Program-made: the position numbers and the translations under genes
Assembly (NCBI GenBank): GCA_903924805.1
Contig: CAIYCZ010000015.1
Location: 1 to 24,735 of the forward strand
DNA from: an uncultured delta proteobacterium
GTDB lineage: Bacteria; Desulfobacterota; WTBG01; CAIYCZ01
Length of the DNA stretch: 24,735 bases
Direction: 5' to 3'
Notes under the pieces: generated by a model
The model's database searches: none
The model's input: only the letters and a program-made list of their open reading frames with translations
Told to the model about the DNA's origin: nothing
Shown: positions 5,246 through 24,513 of the stretch, one piece after another
How the letters are laid out: every line of letters starts with the position of its first letter
Position numbering within the stretch: position 1 is the stretch's first letter

Positions 5246-6046
5246 CTATCCTTTCACGGTAATGTAGGCTTTCTGGGCAGATTTTAAATGTATGGTAGCA
5301 GGTGCCAGTCCCCGTTCTTTGAGGTCGTCAACTATCTTCCACAGGGATTTTATTTTTTCTTCAAAATCACCTTCCCCTACGTATACCTCCATTCTCTCCG
5401 GAGAGGTTATAATGGTAAGACCTGAGTTCTTATCCATTGCTATTTCAAGCACTGCTCCCCTGAACCGTTCTTCATGTTCGATCCGGTCAAGCAACCCCAG
5501 AGCAGTCCGGATAATCTGGAAGCAGCGGTCGCTGTCCCGGTAGAGATCTTCTTTCGTGAGACCGGTCAGCAGGGGGTAGCTGCACTCGCTGGTATCGGCC
5601 TTCTTGAAAATATCACCGTGCTCATCTACCAGATATAAATCTTCAAACTTAATGACCGCCCGCGGCTTGCGCTCCTCAAGATATATTTCAAGTGTCCCGG
5701 GGAGCCTTCTTTTAAGCACCGCCCGATAGATATAGGGATACTTTTCAAGCTGCGAGCTACTGTTGGCAAGGTTAAGGGACAGCAGATTCATTCCCTTGTT
5801 AATGCGTGCATAGGAGATAATCCCGTCAGGACTGGTGATATGACATCCAAAGATTTTTAATTCTTTCAGCTCAAAAAAACTGCTCTGTTTGAGATATTCG
5901 GCACCAGGTCCGAGCACTAGGACAAACAGGACGAGAGCGCACCCCCGCAGCACCCACGCTGAACTGTTCAGAGGATGTTCTGCCGCATGCCGCCGAGAGG
6001 GCCTGCCGCCGACCGCGCGCGTTTTTTTCAAGGCAAAAAATTTCAT
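5246..6046 (-). CDS. ftsQ: Cell division protein FtsQ/DivIB
   Basis: Basic N-tail, single TM (WVLRGCALVLFVLVLG), POTRA-like region (LKRRLPGTLEIYLEERKP, YLVDEHG), position between ddl and ftsA. Start refined to ATG 6046, which overlaps the ddl stop as ATGA. Confidence 0.9.
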   Translation of the reverse strand: MKFFALKKTRAVGGRPSRRHAAEHPLNSSAWVLRGCALVLFVLVLGPGAEYLKQSSFFELKELKIFGCHITSPDGIISYARINKGMNLLSLNLANSSSQLEKYPYIYRAVLKRRLPGTLEIYLEERKPRAVIKFEDLYLVDEHGDIFKKADTSECSYPLLTGLTKEDLYRDSDRCFQIIRTALGLLDRIEHEERFRGAVLEIAMDKNSGLTIITSPERMEVYVGEGDFEEKIKSLWKIVDDLKERGLAPATIHLKSAQKAYITVKG

Positions 6047-7065
6047 GGGCTCTTCTTTCCGGTACGTAAACCGGGGCACTTTTTATGCAAAGAGGCACCC
6101 CATAAGATTTTTTCTACCAGGTCTGGAAAATCGATTCCGGCCTCTTGCCCCGCCATAGGCAAGAGACTGGTCTCGGTCATTCCCGGAACGGTATTTATTT
6201 CAAGGATACACGGTCTCCCGTCCCGGCGTATCATAAAATCAACCCGAGCTGCGCCACTGCATCCCAGCACCTGAAAAGCTCTGACCGCAAGATCACGTGC
6301 TTCTCTTTCCTGCGCTTCAGATATCCGTGCAGGGATAATATATGCGGTCTGCCCCTTCGTGTATTTTGCGTGGTAGTCATAGAATCCGTTTTTTGGTGCA
6401 ATCTCAATCGGCGGCAGTGCCTGGCCATTTATAATGCCAACCGTTATTTCTGTCCCGGTAATAAATTCTTCCACAAGAATTTCCCGGTTATGGCGACGCG
6501 CGGTGTGCAGTGCGGGTAACAGATCATCCTGCTTCTCCACCACGCTCACTCCGATGGTAGAGCCTTCTTCAGACGGCTTGATGATGAGCGGAAAGGGAAT
6601 GGTAATCTGCGGAAGGATCCGCTCCGCTGACCCTTCCGCTATGACAAACGCCTGAAACGAAGGCGTGGGAAGTTTGTGATAGAAAAATATTTTTTTTGCT
6701 GCAACCTTATTCATGGCAAGAGCACTGGCAAGCACGCCCGAACCGGTATAGGGTATTCCCATGATCTCCAGAAGTCCCTGGATGGCTCCATCCTCCCCCA
6801 GCAGTCCGTGCAGGGCGATAAAACCCGCGTCAATGGCAGAGCGCCTGAGTGTCTCTGCAACCGAGCGGTCAACATCAATTGCCACGGCCTGATAGGTTCT
6901 GCCCTGGAGAGCCTGGAGAATGGCGTTTCCTGTTCTGAGCGATATCTCCCGCTCAGATGACATGCCACCCATGAGGACCCCGATCTTTTTCCCCCTGAAC
7001 TGCTCGCGCAGATATTCAGGGGGGTGTTCTGCGCGCTCATCACTATCCATAAAGCGTTTCACCAC
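6043..7065 (-). CDS. ddl: D-alanine--D-alanine ligase
   Basis: GGMSSEREISL, LHGLLGEDGAIQG, EGSTIG, FYDYHAKY (Tyr in omega loop, D-Ala-D-Ala type), LEINTVPGMT. Start could be 7065, 7062 or 7050. Confidence 0.97.
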   Translation of the reverse strand: MVKRFMDSDERAEHPPEYLREQFRGKKIGVLMGGMSSEREISLRTGNAILQALQGRTYQAVAIDVDRSVAETLRRSAIDAGFIALHGLLGEDGAIQGLLEIMGIPYTGSGVLASALAMNKVAAKKIFFYHKLPTPSFQAFVIAEGSAERILPQITIPFPLIIKPSEEGSTIGVSVVEKQDDLLPALHTARRHNREILVEEFITGTEITVGIINGQALPPIEIAPKNGFYDYHAKYTKGQTAYIIPARISEAQEREARDLAVRAFQVLGCSGAARVDFMIRRDGRPCILEINTVPGMTETSLLPMAGQEAGIDFPDLVEKILWGASLHKKCPGLRTGKKSP

Positions 7066-20393: not shown

Positions 20394-20837
20394 CTACAGC
20401 CTGAGGCGGTTGAGAATTTCACCGATGTCTTCACTGGGCTCCTGGTTCTGGGCCTGGTTGATGGTCTGGTCAAACCGTTCTTTATTCCATATCTCAAAGT
20501 GTTTAATCCGTCCGGCAATAACCACGTCTTTTTCAAGGTGTGCATGAATTCTCAAACTCGGGGGGATGAGAATGCGCCCCTGCTTGTCAGTGGTGCATTC
20601 GGTGGCGTAGGAAATGATCAGACGCTGGAAGTTTCGCACCTCCCGCTTTCCGGTAGGTTGGTTATAAATTTCTTCTTCTACTTTCAGCCATTCTTCCTGA
20701 GGATATACGTAGAGGCACTCATCAAATGTGGTGATGATAAGGCTATCATCATATTTGCGCAGTATCTCGCGGAATTTTACCGGAAGACTGATGCGCCCCT
20801 TTTCATCTATTATATGGTCAAAACGTCCCCTGAACAT
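20394..20837 (-). CDS. mraZ: Division/cell wall cluster transcriptional repressor MraZ
   Basis: Two DxxGR motifs (DEKGRISLP, DKQGRILIP), YVYPQEEW, FEIWN; first gene of the cluster. Confidence 0.98.
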   Translation of the reverse strand: MFRGRFDHIIDEKGRISLPVKFREILRKYDDSLIITTFDECLYVYPQEEWLKVEEEIYNQPTGKREVRNFQRLIISYATECTTDKQGRILIPPSLRIHAHLEKDVVIAGRIKHFEIWNKERFDQTINQAQNQEPSEDIGEILNRLRL

Positions 20838-20859
20838 AGTTGCCTGATGGTATTAAAAA

Positions 20860-20885
20860 CCACTTTATTCCACTTCATCCCACTT
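20860..20885 (-). promoter_or_regulatory. Three MraZ-binding direct repeats (AAGTGG, 10-bp period)
   Basis: Plus strand CCACTT at 20860, 20870 and 20880; minus strand reads AAGTGGGATG AAGTGGAATA AAGTGG. This matches the known GTGGG-type MraZ box array and lies between the promoter and the mraZ start. Confidence 0.88.
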
Positions 20886-20893
20886 TTAGGCGA

Positions 20894-20922
20894 AATATAT
20901 TCCTGTCCGTAACCGATGTCAA
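20894..20922 (-). promoter_or_regulatory. sigma70 promoter of the dcw operon
   Basis: Minus strand TTGACA-N17-TATATT with an A/T-rich upstream tract; the predicted start site (about 20887) abuts the MraZ boxes. Confidence 0.85.
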
Positions 20923-21134
20923 GAAAAAAATGATGTTTTTCTAATGATTTTTAGGCTTTTTTCGAACCAAAAAATTAGCACAACATATGGACGTTCATTG
21001 TCGTATAAATACTAAATATAGTGTCTATTGCGAATAAATATCTTTTAAAGATGTTTGTGGCGGATAAAACATAAAAATATTTTTTAATATTTTTCTTCAT
21101 ATCAGCCTCAAAAATACCCTGCTGTAATAAAAAC

Positions 21135-21163
21135 TTGAAACCTCCACATGAAAGGTATATTTT
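21135..21163 (+). promoter_or_regulatory. Candidate sigma70 promoter for the SPOR gene
   Basis: TTGAAA (21135-21140)-N17-TATTTT (21158-21163). The AT-rich context makes a chance match possible. Confidence 0.35.
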
Positions 21164-21290
21164 GTTGAGTAGCGGTCTGTTCAGTTTTTGCATATAAGAA
21201 TTTTTCTATCGTACCTGTTGCAGATACGAGCAGCGCATCCGGGGCGTTTTTGAAACTGAAGCACTGAAACCATAGCCACCATGATTAGCT

Positions 21291-22412
21291 ATGAAAAAAT
21301 TTTGCTGCCTGTTTTTTCTATTTTTTGTTTGTGCTCTTTTCCCGCTGAGCTCACCATGCTTTAGTGAAAACAAAAAAGCTGCTTCTCCTCCCCCGCTTCC
21401 TGCACAAGAATTATTTTTCACCTTTCAGGTTCAGTCTGTAGCAAATAAAGAGCCGGCACATGCGCTTGAGAACAGACTGGTCCGCAAAGGCTATCCTGCC
21501 TATGTCACACAGTCTCTGGATAAAACCGGGAAGCAGTTCTATCAGATCCGCATCGGAAAGTTCAGCACCCGGAAAGAAGCAGAAGCATCGGCACGCCTTT
21601 TTTATACCAGGGAAAAAATGGCGTACTGGATTACTGCAGCATCCGGAACACAGAGGGCTTCATCCACGACGACAACAATGAATGCTGGTGCTCCTGCAGG
21701 GTCCCCGGACAATGCACCGGGAAAGGTGCCGGCTCCTGCCGCAGCAAAAGAACCGGCAGCGCAGACAGAATCGCTTTCAGGCATTGAGAAGGTGCCGGAT
21801 GAAGAAAAGTATCTGGACCTTGAAAACACTGCCCCTGAGACCCGCAAACAGGAATCAGCGCAGCCATCCGAGCAGCCACCACCGGCAGCCCGGGAACAGG
21901 AGGACACCTCCCGTCAGCAATCCGTCACCAGGATGTATACCTACCGTGGGCCTCAGGGCTCGCTGCATGTCACCAATACGCTTGATAATATCCCGAACGA
22001 GTTTCGGGACGCTATAGAAAGCATCTCCCTGTTCCCGGTTAAAGTTATTTCCTTTAACCAGAAGAAAAAAGTTCTGCTCCTGGATTGTGAAGGGAAGGAA
22101 CTCGAGGTTAAGCTTCTGGGGATTTCTATTCCGTCTGCTGCTGTTGCCGGCAGCGTTTCCACCTATGTTGATAAAAAATTAAAGGGGGCTCCCCTGCGTC
22201 TCAAATACATCCCTGGGCGCAGCGGCGATAAAGACAGAATCCTGTCGGGCAGCCTCTATTTCAGACAGGGCACCCCGGTTAATCTGGAAATGCTCATGCA
22301 GGGAATTGCCCCGTATGACACAGGGCACAGTCCCGTCTCACAGCAAAAAGTATTCACCGAGGCAGAAGCCTTTGCCAGAAAGGAAAAGGCCGGCATCTGG
22401 GCAGGTCAATAA
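21291..22412 (+). CDS. Exported protein: signal peptide + SPOR domain + Pro/Ala/Glu linker + DUF4124-like motif + degenerate thermonuclease (SNase-like) domain
   Basis: Signal-like MKKFCCLFFLFFVCALFPLSSPCFS; SPOR-like FTFQVQSV...LVRKGYPAYV...YQIRIGKFSTRKEAE; MYTYRGPQGSLHVTN..IP.EFR; SNase-like VKLLGISIP, VNLEMLMQGIA, AEAFARKEKAGIW. Confidence 0.85.
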   Translation: MKKFCCLFFLFFVCALFPLSSPCFSENKKAASPPPLPAQELFFTFQVQSVANKEPAHALENRLVRKGYPAYVTQSLDKTGKQFYQIRIGKFSTRKEAEASARLFYTREKMAYWITAASGTQRASSTTTTMNAGAPAGSPDNAPGKVPAPAAAKEPAAQTESLSGIEKVPDEEKYLDLENTAPETRKQESAQPSEQPPPAAREQEDTSRQQSVTRMYTYRGPQGSLHVTNTLDNIPNEFRDAIESISLFPVKVISFNQKKKVLLLDCEGKELEVKLLGISIPSAAVAGSVSTYVDKKLKGAPLRLKYIPGRSGDKDRILSGSLYFRQGTPVNLEMLMQGIAPYDTGHSPVSQQKVFTEAEAFARKEKAGIWAGQ

Positions 22413-22447
22413 GCAGCACTGATGATTATCTCCGTGTGATTTATGCA

Positions 22448-22478
22448 TTGAAAATAGAAATCAAAGAGTATATATAAT
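22448..22478 (+). promoter_or_regulatory. Candidate sigma70 promoter for the TPR gene
   Basis: TTGAAA (22448-22453) with TATATA at 17-nt spacing or TATAAT (22473-22478) at 19-nt spacing. Confidence 0.45.
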
Positions 22479-22503
22479 TCCACTCCATGTATGCTATGCA
22501 GGC

Positions 22504-24276
22504 TTGGGTACACTCATGAAAAAAATATGGCTTGGCTCCAGACCATCTGAAATTAAGGGAAAAGATAAAAATTTTGATCCTGAACCGCGCCTTGATGCTG
22601 GTGCAGGGCCGGAGTCATCTGCGCCTGAGCAGGTAATTATTTCTGCCCGGAAGCCTGCCAGAAAAGCTGCCGGCCTGAAGCGGATTATCTGGCTGCTGCT
22701 TTTCATCATCGGGGTGCTGCTTGGTGTTGTGTTATTTAAGGGGTCACCTGATTTCTCTTCGCAGGATATCAAACATATCTTTTCCCTCCAGGCTGCGCTT
22801 GACCGCGTTGAAGTCGTGTCAGGAGCACAGACGCTCACCATACAAGACGGCGAAACCGTTGAGATTAATTTCAGAGACGGCCTCAGCATAAAAAAAATTA
22901 TCTGCAGGGGATGGTACCGGCTGTTTCCTCCGGATGACATTCAGGCTGAAATCACCGGCGTGGGGAAGCTGCCGGACCCCTATCAGGAAAATATTATCCC
23001 GCTGTTAAAACCTGAAAAGGCAACCTCCGGTGACCTCATGCTGTCAAGGGGAAACACCCGGATTGGCAGGGTGCGTTTTACCCTCAGGCTGGATGCCCGG
23101 GACTGGATTTCACGGGCTGAAGTGGTAGAGGACCGGGAGCTTAAAAACCTCTGCTATAAAAATGCCATTGCCATCAGCCCCTCTTCTGAAGAAGCCCGCA
23201 GCGGTCTTGCCAAAACCTACGAACAGAATAAGCAGGCAGACCGGGCAATTGCAGAATATGAGGAAGTCTTAAAAATTAATCCGGACAATAAAGAAGCGCT
23301 CACCGCCCTTGTCAGCCTGTACAGCCAGAAAAACCGGCGCGCAAAGCTCATTGAAACCTATCAGACACTGGCAAAGCTTGATACCAAAAAAGCAGACAAC
23401 TACTATTACAAAGCCGCTACCGTTGCAGAAAAATCAAATCTGCCCGCTGAGGCACTTGCCCTGTATAAAAAATCCATCGCCGCAAACAGCGCCAATCTCG
23501 ATGCCCGGCAGAAGCTCATTAAAATATATGAGAAACAGAACCAGTGGAACCTGGTAGCAACGCAAACCCAGGAGTTGGTGAAGCTTGATCCCAATAATTC
23601 CAACCTGTATCTCTATCTCTCGGAAGCCTATCTCAAAACCAATCAGCTTGACCAGGCTGTTGCAGCAGTGGAAAAAGCGGCAAAGCTCAACCCGAAGGAT
23701 GCACCGATTCAGCTGCAGTGTGCGCTGCTGTATGAAAAAGCAAAGAAGGAAGACCGGGCTATTCAGGCATACAAAAAACTGGTTGCGATAACCCCCAAAA
23801 ATGCCACGGCGTTTAATAATCTCGGACTGCTCCAGGAAAAAACAGGCGACCGGAAATCAGCTGTTGCCAATTATGAGAAAGCGGTATCCCTTGACCCGGA
23901 CAATACCGTGTTTCTCCTGAATCTTGCGGATGCCTATGAAAAGGAGAAGCAGCGGGACAAAGCCATACAGGTGTATGAGAAAGTAGCACAAGTCGACAAG
24001 AAGAATGCGGGAGCATGGGAGGCTCTGGCAGTCCTCTATCAGAAGGGCGGCAGAAATGCCGATGTCATCAAAGCGTATAAGGAGCTCTCACAGATTGAGC
24101 CTAAAAAAATCCTCTGGCACCAGAAGCTTGCGTCCCTCTATGAAAACGCGGGGAACTATACTGAGGCAAAAAAAGAATATGAAAGGATTCTGAAATTAAA
24201 TCCAAAAGATAAAGAAGCTAAACAGAAGGTGCTTGACCTTTCCATCAAGCGAATCCAGAGAAAGCTGAAAAAATAA
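22504..24276 (+). CDS. Membrane-anchored tetratricopeptide repeat protein (about 10 TPRs)
   Basis: Charged N-tail, single TM IIWLLLFIIGVLLGVVLF, about 130-aa beta-rich segment, then 34-aa periodic repeats ending INPDN, LDPNN, LNPKD, ITPKN, LDPDN, IEPKK, LNPKD. Start is TTG 22504 or ATG 22516. Confidence 0.9.
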   Translation: MGTLMKKIWLGSRPSEIKGKDKNFDPEPRLDAGAGPESSAPEQVIISARKPARKAAGLKRIIWLLLFIIGVLLGVVLFKGSPDFSSQDIKHIFSLQAALDRVEVVSGAQTLTIQDGETVEINFRDGLSIKKIICRGWYRLFPPDDIQAEITGVGKLPDPYQENIIPLLKPEKATSGDLMLSRGNTRIGRVRFTLRLDARDWISRAEVVEDRELKNLCYKNAIAISPSSEEARSGLAKTYEQNKQADRAIAEYEEVLKINPDNKEALTALVSLYSQKNRRAKLIETYQTLAKLDTKKADNYYYKAATVAEKSNLPAEALALYKKSIAANSANLDARQKLIKIYEKQNQWNLVATQTQELVKLDPNNSNLYLYLSEAYLKTNQLDQAVAAVEKAAKLNPKDAPIQLQCALLYEKAKKEDRAIQAYKKLVAITPKNATAFNNLGLLQEKTGDRKSAVANYEKAVSLDPDNTVFLLNLADAYEKEKQRDKAIQVYEKVAQVDKKNAGAWEALAVLYQKGGRNADVIKAYKELSQIEPKKILWHQKLASLYENAGNYTEAKKEYERILKLNPKDKEAKQKVLDLSIKRIQRKLKK

Positions 24277-24313
24277 ATTCCTCCTTTTTATAAAGGAAGG
24301 TTGGGAGGGATTT
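24275..24313. repeat. REP-like purine/pyrimidine palindromic element right after the TPR stop (possible terminator)
   Basis: AAATTCCTCCTTTTTATAAAGGAAGGTTGGGAGGGATTT. It can form an inner stem TCCTTT/AAAGGA or an outer 10-bp stem AAATTCCTCC/GGAGGGATTT. Confidence 0.6.
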
Positions 24314-24436: not shown

Positions 24437-24513
24437 GCGCCCGTAGCTCAGTTGGATAGAGTGCCGGACTACGAATCCGAAGGTCGGAGGTTCGAATCCT
24501 CTCGGGCGCGCCA
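24437..24513 (+). tRNA. tRNA-Arg (anticodon ACG), CCA encoded
   Basis: Acceptor stem GCGCCCG/CGGGCGC, D-loop AGTTGGATA (A20 Arg identity element), anticodon loop CTACGAA, T-loop TTCGAAT, 77 nt. Confidence 0.98.

Follow-up and report, generated by a model that had tools for sequence, protein, structure and literature searches.

The window analysed here, a stretch of 24,735 nt from an uncultured delta proteobacterium (contig CAIYCZ010000015.1), carries on its plus strand at 21291–22412 an open reading frame (ORF) of 373 codons plus stop, taken with its translation from the ORF list of the window. Its product, hereafter referred to as the SPOR-SN protein, joins a signal peptide, a SPOR domain, a linker, a hairpin resembling DUF4124 and a staphylococcal nuclease (SNase) fold that has lost its catalytic residues; the hairpin and the SNase fold together are referred to as the C-module. 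Nearly all sampled members of the order to which the window belongs retain this catalytically dead protein, so its role is probably that of an adaptor in the cell envelope and not of an enzyme; that it is specifically a wall-tethered, non-catalytic adaptor is the reading to which we lean. An earlier note, made from the letters of the window alone, had described the joining of SPOR to a dead thermonuclease fold and had not recognised it from any characterised protein. The architecture is as described there, and our literature search, judged by titles and abstracts, returned no description of a SPOR-thermonuclease fusion.

Domain Architecture and Cellular Location

The N-terminus (approximately residues 1–25, 21291–21365, plus strand) has a basic n-region followed by a hydrophobic run and resembles a cleavable Sec signal peptide, in line with the signal peptide listed in the earlier note. 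N-termini of the same predicted kind are seen in 55 of the 55 family members, with no consistent lipobox across them, so the SPOR-SN protein is most likely soluble and periplasmic after Sec export. A lipoprotein reading was considered for a Cys that the close subfamily keeps toward the signal-peptide end, yet the flanks of this residue form no lipobox and other members have no Cys, and the reading was rejected as the default. The SPOR domain begins within ~15 residues of the end of the signal peptide and spans residues 43–116 (21417–21638, +), with PF05036 matching residues 43–99 in Pfam (E 4.1e-9, 37.1 bits against a gathering cut-off of 21). It is followed by an acidic low-complexity linker (residues 117–211, 21639–21923, +), recognised by its composition (69 % P/A/E/Q/S/T, pI 4.5) and its low identity between relatives. 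The length of ~95 aa agrees with the Pro/Ala/Glu/Gln linker that had been reported, though it differs among homologues, and no conserved motif was found in the linker among the homologues compared.

The rest of the protein comprises a DUF4124-like beta-hairpin with a short helix (residues 212–246, 21924–22028, +) and the SNase fold, of the oligonucleotide/oligosaccharide-binding (OB) type (residues 247–373, 22029–22409, +). The Pfam match of the latter to PF00565 (E 8.3e-7, 29.9 bits, cut-off 21, residues 313–371) is confined to the C-terminal half of the profile (positions 47–106 of 107). Neither Tudor nor DPBB gave a Pfam match in the 373-aa protein, and the SN fold is single. Both the SPOR and the SNase Pfam domains are present in 36 full-length homologues. 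The positions that had been assigned to the SPOR domain (21417–21638), to the MYTYRGPQGSLHVTN segment (from 21933) and to GISIPS (22119–22136) proved to be exact.

A Nuclease Fold Without Catalytic Residues

The C-module (residues 208–373, excised from the homologue alignment) was modelled with AlphaFold2 (AF2) on an alignment of 21 sequences, which gave a mean predicted local distance difference test score (pLDDT) of 90.3 and a predicted template modeling score (pTM) of 0.84. The top Foldseek match of this model is staphylococcal nuclease (E 2e-7, TM-score 0.74 by target), and a profile search against the PDB gave E 1.5e-6 for the SNase fold. An exhaustive structural comparison by VIA-align returned 2wac_B (Z 14.4), 4qmg_A (13.1), 3bdl_A (12.7) and 1sta_A (12.6), the last superposing with a root mean square deviation of 2.6 over 124 residues; these matches mostly cover model residues 36–166, and the next unrelated OB folds stand at Z ~4. 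The chain 2wac_B is the SN-like part of the extended Tudor domain of Tudor-SN and 4qmg_A is SND1, from an entry with MTDH, so that by Z-score the SN domains of Tudor-SN/SND1 tie with the enzyme 1sta_A as the nearest structures. On the combined AF2, Foldseek and VIA-align results, the claim of a C-terminal SNase-like domain holds. The structural tail that had been described as kept (NxE..R.G.A and the closing AR...GIW helix) is indeed retained, and the first 35 residues of the C-module are an addition N-terminal to the SNase fold, modelled as two strands (model residues 6–12 and 18–21) and a helix (29–34).

Catalytic positions were read from an alignment in which three canonical thermonucleases from the same phylum, with the motifs DGDT, RLIG(V/I)DTPE and YGR(L/V)LAY, served as references; residues of the Staphylococcus aureus nuclease follow its established numbering. 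The Ca2+-binding DGDT is replaced by K258-K259-K260-V261 (22062–22073, +), which places K260 at the position of D21. The motif (I/V)RLIG(V/I)DTPE is replaced by VKLLGISIPS (22107–22136, +), in which K273 stands for R35, S278 for D40, I279 for T41 and S281 for E43, and the position of the catalytic R87 is taken by I317 (22239–22241, +). The reported loss of the D21, R35, D40 and E43 equivalents is thus confirmed and extends to T41 and R87, and the loop that follows the DTPE motif is 8 residues shorter than in the canonical enzymes. The former catalytic columns hold many different residues across the family, while the invariant columns lie elsewhere (N229, I234, P249, V250, L262, L275, G277, P301, R303, L304, K305, P308, G338, A362, G368 and W370) and include the most invariant motif of the family, PLRLKYxP (P301, R303, L304, K305 and P308; 22191–22214, +). 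Among the aligned family members, none of the module's Asp, Glu, His, Ser or Cys residues is invariant. By every canonical criterion of metal binding, general-base catalysis and phosphate binding the SNase fold is catalytically dead, and the loss of these residues argues for a module that would bind rather than catalyse.

The DUF4124-Like Hairpin

PF13511 (DUF4124) has no direct Pfam match in the 373-aa protein even at E 10, and among 55 relatives it rises above the gathering score in one fringe member (24.9 bits), although matches to it occur in 118 of 151 genomes of the phylum. We therefore compared the first 48 columns of the family alignment with a PF13511 reference profile built from 20 genuine domains of the same phylum. 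The two profiles align by hhalign over 34 columns with a probability of 94.9 % and an E-value of 4.6e-8, and the PF13511 pattern Y-x-W-x-D..G..H-x-T-D..(I/V)P..R falls on the family's Y-x-Y-x-x..G..L-x-x-T-N..IP.. This profile-profile alignment makes the earlier label of a DUF4124-like segment a fair one, in the sense of remote homology. The hairpin runs directly into the first strand of the SNase barrel, with no spacer between them. To our knowledge no function has been established for DUF4124 itself.

Exported proteins that combine DUF4124 and SNase in a single ORF, both Pfam domains being above the cut-off, are also encoded in another family of the phylum (L086:710-1291, L087:572-1315 and L088:687-1355), and for this reason the pairing of hairpin and SNase appears to be older than the SPOR-SN family. 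New in the SPOR-SN family are the seamless fusion of the two parts and the SPOR domain in front of them. In a tree of the C-modules the SPOR-SN family is monophyletic relative to the DUF4124-SNase outgroup, with an unresolved backbone and several long branches. Compared by eye with the canonical motifs, the proteins of the other family are also degenerate at their catalytic motifs, and their genes adjoin a plsY-like gene; they would constitute a second, independent periplasmic family of dead SNases.

Distribution and Conservation

A search among 1.84 billion cluster representatives gave approximately 55–60 clusters in which the match extends over most of the module, followed by eukaryotic Tudor-SN proteins and ordinary thermonucleases. 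SPOR is carried by 48 of the 55 full-module relatives. When 401 genomes of the phylum were searched, full-length module matches were confined to the order of the window, with none in the ~390 others, where ordinary SNase matches were the only ones. Within this order of sulfate-reducer type, which consists of uncultured metagenome-assembled genomes of Thermodesulfobacteriota, the hairpin and dead SNase occur together in 20 of the 21 sampled genomes, among them every one of the 14 high-quality genomes, and all 12 genera are represented. The suggestion that the protein is lineage-specific is in agreement with these counts, and the architecture is a rare one, long established in its order and not previously described. 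DNA of the window was matched in freshwater sediment metagenomes, and no RNA dataset covering 20700–24300 was found.

The pairwise identity between members, given as a range from all members to the close subfamily, is 51–66 % for the hairpin, the segment with the highest conservation in the family as a whole, 43–57 % for the SNase part, 42–65 % for SPOR, and 15–26 % for the linker. Because the hairpin and the SNase part are as conserved as SPOR while the linker is not, and because the module is retained across the order, the SPOR-SN gene appears to be under selection; the orthologues are ~40 % identical, at which distance synonymous sites would be saturated. In one genome of the order (G074, L044:6975-7592) the sole copy of the module is a 206-aa frame with neither SPOR nor the closing helix (profile positions 3–148).

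Gene Neighborhood and a Candidate Partner

The SPOR-SN gene is divergent from mraZ (20394–20837, −; TIGR00242, 134.4 bits, cut-off 98), the first gene of the division and cell wall (dcw) cluster, across an AT-rich spacer of 453 nt, so the head-to-head position noted earlier is correct. On its other side, 103 nt downstream, lies a gene on the plus strand (22516–24276) for a bitopic protein with an Ig-like domain and tetratricopeptide repeats (TPRs), identified by TPR Pfam matches and a homologue alignment. The order mraZ, divergent SPOR-SN gene, TPR gene is found in 12 of the 21 genomes, representing 7 genera, with mraZ linkage in all four members of the window's family and in 8 of the 17 from the sister family. 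The dcw linkage is thus real, but not universal, and in the genomes examined it is the TPR gene that stands as the fixed divergent neighbor of mraZ. Between the two lies a CysK-like gene in G232, G074 and G141, and no gene in G339 and G261. By its appearance the CysK-like gene encodes a CysK-type pyridoxal phosphate-dependent enzyme, and it takes the place of the SPOR-SN gene in three genera (L046, L047 and L050).

A longer paralogue with the same dead module and two or three SPOR domains (up to four in G409) is present in G232, G339, G141, G409, G404 and G405 (L037, L038, L042, L103, L105 and L106), and several of the genomes with such a paralogue have the dcw-linked copy as well. The paralogue is divergent from a GGDEF gene in G232, G339, G141, G404 and G405 and, in G172, G141 and G409, precedes HDOD or metallo-beta-lactamase-fold genes downstream of it, a second conserved context that hints at signaling by cyclic di-GMP (c-di-GMP). 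The relation of the dcw-linked and GGDEF-linked forms is left unresolved by the tree.

The homologue alignment suggests that the TPR gene starts at ATG 22516 rather than at TTG 22504, which gives a product of 586 aa. This protein has a strongly conserved cytoplasmic peptide at its N-terminus (MKKIGLGxRPSEIK in homologues), one transmembrane (TM) helix, an Ig-like beta-sandwich and ~10 TPRs, and the Ig-like and TPR parts are presumably periplasmic, as they follow a single TM helix that is preceded by a basic patch. The model of the Ig-like domain (pLDDT 89) best matches domain 3 of the Helicobacter pylori cell-shape protein Csd4 (Z 9.5), its remaining matches being generic Ig-like domains. The homologue in G289 (L036:7687-9411) has two in-frame stops, which may reflect a pseudogene, a sequencing error or a problem of frame, and was left out of the alignment.

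When TPR residues 85–586 were co-folded with the C-module, the score was 0.35 (runs of 0.26, 0.35 and 0.41), with 0.00 for the best control, a result classed as weak support; the contacts of the three runs agree to at least 93 %, with a pLDDT of at least 79 for the partner. In the calibration of this procedure 58 of 80 solved complexes passed the mark, as did 2 of 110 mismatched pairs, and passes with a score of at most 0.60 came from only 7 of those 80 complexes and from both passing mismatches, counts that hold roughly here, as our own alignments were used. Taken together with the prior given by the conserved gene order, the co-fold score would raise the odds of pairing a little, and the TPR protein is possibly the partner of the SPOR-SN protein and the best candidate for it.

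Proposed Function and Its Alternatives

The features described above can be assembled into a mechanism. Following Sec export and cleavage of the signal peptide, the SPOR domain would attach the protein to peptide-free (“denuded”) glycan. Such strands are produced by amidases mainly at the division septum, which would put the protein there, and an Amidase_3 enzyme encoded in the genome is the maker of this SPOR ligand; SPOR domains, as far as they have been characterised, target the septum. The flexible acidic linker of ~95 residues would let the C-module reach away from the wall, and the DUF4124-type hairpin with the SNase/OB fold would serve as a binding surface, not as an enzyme. This surface may dock on the periplasmic part of the membrane-anchored Ig-like/TPR protein, in which case the pair would link a TPR scaffold to septal peptidoglycan. 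We regard the full proposal, an order-specific two-protein bridge from the inner membrane to septal peptidoglycan that acts as a division or constriction accessory with no counterpart in the characterised divisome and in which a nuclease fold would have become a domain for protein docking, as tentative and rather doubtful as a whole.

Several observations weigh against this proposal. Five genomes keep the TPR gene next to mraZ with the SPOR-SN gene non-adjacent, and the sole copy of the module that was found in them lies elsewhere (as the multi-SPOR paralogue in several, truncated in G074), so the pairing need not be obligate. By the calibration, most weak co-fold passes are false where pairing was not already likely, and we know of no cultured member of the order. 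The former active site in the window's clade is also lined with lysines (K258–260, K273 and K314), which suits a phosphate-bearing ligand that is not a protein. This last point leads to a reading in which the dead SNase module, tethered to the wall, binds a polyanion (extracellular or incoming DNA, a lipid-linked pyrophosphate, or the head groups of lipopolysaccharide or phospholipid) through lysines that replace the Ca2+ site. The SNase part is basic (pI 9.6, 19 K+R against 12 D+E), the DGDT position reads KKK in the window's clade with K259 invariant in the close subfamily, the equivalent of K84 is kept as K314 and R35 has become K273; in addition, ssDNA-binding OB folds are among the weaker structural neighbors (Z ~4) and a cluster in the ESM Atlas joins SNase with ComEA-type HHH domains. 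A Z near 4 is background, however, the basic residues of the active site vary, with G, T, S or E in the long forms, and the equivalents of the nucleotide-contacting R35, R87 and Y85 are lost, and we consider polyanion binding unlikely. Retained activity as a nuclease or phosphodiesterase by way of non-canonical residues could draw on an intact, confidently modeled fold and on the invariance of R303 and K305, but with no Asp, Glu, His, Ser or Cys invariant in the module, all five canonical positions replaced and variable, and a loop that is 8 residues shorter, it seems scarcely credible.

A further alternative concerns the process that the protein serves. If the protein served a c-di-GMP-governed process of the envelope or matrix, and not division, its adjacency to mraZ would be a local accident; the multi-SPOR paralogue beside GGDEF, HDOD and metallo-beta-lactamase-fold genes in several genomes speaks for this, as do the genomes that carry only a copy not adjacent to mraZ. 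The genomes with these neighbors are kin of one family, so the repeated GGDEF/HDOD context is not independent, the dcw-linked copy is the sole one in each of the 4 genomes of the window's family, and the septum-targeting of characterised SPOR domains points to division, which together make this process quite improbable as the site of action. A core role at the septum had been raised in the earlier note, which suggested that the protein might be standing in for FtsN or DedD; a SPOR domain, an adjacent dcw cluster and retention throughout the order would fit a core role in activating septal peptidoglycan synthesis. The SPOR-SN protein fails the build of FtsN, DedD and DamX, however, having a signal peptide, no membrane anchor, no cytoplasmic segment or tail, and SPOR at the N-terminal end. 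Its linker is without a conserved motif and the dcw linkage is absent in 9 of the 21 genomes. The RlpA build is likewise not that of this protein, which has neither a lipobox nor a DPBB domain. Moreover, the same genome encodes three further SPOR proteins, one of which has the FtsN-like order of TM helix, linker and SPOR, lies directly 3' of argS (L002:1060-1749 on contig C537, which ends at the gene end) and is the genome's best FtsN candidate; linkage to argS and an F-Y-x-x-L motif are typical of FtsN homologues. The second is GNA1162-like with a C-terminal SPOR, and the third is interrupted by a contig end. Given the soluble build, the N-terminal SPOR and the separate argS-linked protein, we do not retain the suggestion, and substitution for FtsN or DedD is very unlikely.

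Relation to Known Systems

With FtsN, DamX, DedD and RlpA of Escherichia coli and CwlC of Bacillus subtilis the SPOR-SN protein shares the SPOR domain, an adjoining long low-complexity linker, the vicinity of division genes and a probable targeting to denuded glycan. It differs from FtsN, DamX and DedD, which are bitopic with a C-terminal SPOR, in being soluble with an N-terminal SPOR, and from RlpA, a lipoprotein with a DPBB domain before SPOR, in having neither feature. Its other end is the DUF4124/SNase module and not a cytoplasmic tail, a DPBB or an amidase domain, and no segment of the essential FtsN type was recognised in it. With staphylococcal nuclease (PF00565) it shares the fold (Z 12.6, TM-score 0.74), sequence homology in the C-terminal half and the structural tail, but it is without the Ca2+ ligands, the general-base Glu and both catalytic Arg and adds the hairpin-helix extension, and it is not expected from these residues to cleave nucleic acid.

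The SN domains of Tudor-SN/SND1 have lost catalysis and act as protein- or RNA-binding scaffolds. They are the top structural matches of the C-module, a likeness in principle rather than one of membership: Tudor-SN/SND1 is eukaryotic, cytoplasmic or nuclear, and built of SN domains in tandem with a Tudor insertion, whereas the C-module is a single SN fold, and at 11–17 % identity there is no sign of direct descent. DUF4124 proteins share with the SPOR-SN protein the hairpin (Y-x-W/Y-x-D..G..H/N-x-T-D/N), the IP..R helix and export, but carry the hairpin at the N-terminus, whereas here it is internal, after SPOR and linker, and too diverged for the Pfam model. A periplasmic protein with DUF4124 (PF13511) is TfpC, a type IV pilus factor of Neisseria gonorrhoeae (bioRxiv 10.1101/2020.09.26.314724). 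TfpC was the only DUF4124 protein that turned up in the literature on this domain, with no mechanism given for the domain.

If the adaptor reading is true, it would extend the reuse of an SNase fold as a binding scaffold, seen so far mainly in eukaryotic Tudor-SN, to the bacterial periplasm, would offer a first functional handle on DUF4124, and would hint at divisome accessories peculiar to a lineage, in a phylum whose cell division has hardly been studied. SPOR domains are the best-understood route by which bacterial proteins are addressed to the division septum, and the range of cargo domains studied is narrow; a DUF4124 hairpin continuous with a dead nuclease fold, with SPOR at the unusual N-terminal end, is a cargo not previously described. 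We consider the weight of the finding moderate, because it touches no long-standing question and has no cultured host.

Regulatory Sequences and Further Features of the Locus

The dcw cluster is complete on the minus strand of the window. In a scan with NCBIfam that left out the ORFs between MurE and FtsA, matches were obtained for MraZ, RsmH, an FtsI-class penicillin-binding protein, MurE, FtsA and FtsZ, with an FtsL-like protein below the cut-off; a 277-aa ORF at the position of FtsQ (5246–6079, −) had no NCBIfam match at E 1e-5. The earlier note had inferred co-regulation with the cell cycle from the head-to-head position with mraZ. Reading of the intergenic sequence gives three CCACTT direct repeats with 10-nt spacing (20861–20890, −; AAGTGG on the mraZ strand), a candidate MraZ operator 24 nt before the start of mraZ, and presumably of the same kind as published MraZ boxes, which they resemble. 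A match of 11/12 to a sigma-70 promoter, found by consensus scan, lies immediately upstream of the repeats at 20922–20894 (−) and would serve mraZ. For the SPOR-SN gene the consensus scan alone suggests a weak sigma-70-like candidate promoter (9/12) at 21135–21163 (+), ~245 nt from the repeats. With the repeats at the promoter of mraZ and the linkage found in only 12 of 21 genomes, the inferred co-regulation is not supported, and shared control of the SPOR-SN gene by MraZ is possible but not indicated. Directly after the TPR gene the window carries a tRNA-Arg (ACG) at 24437–24513.

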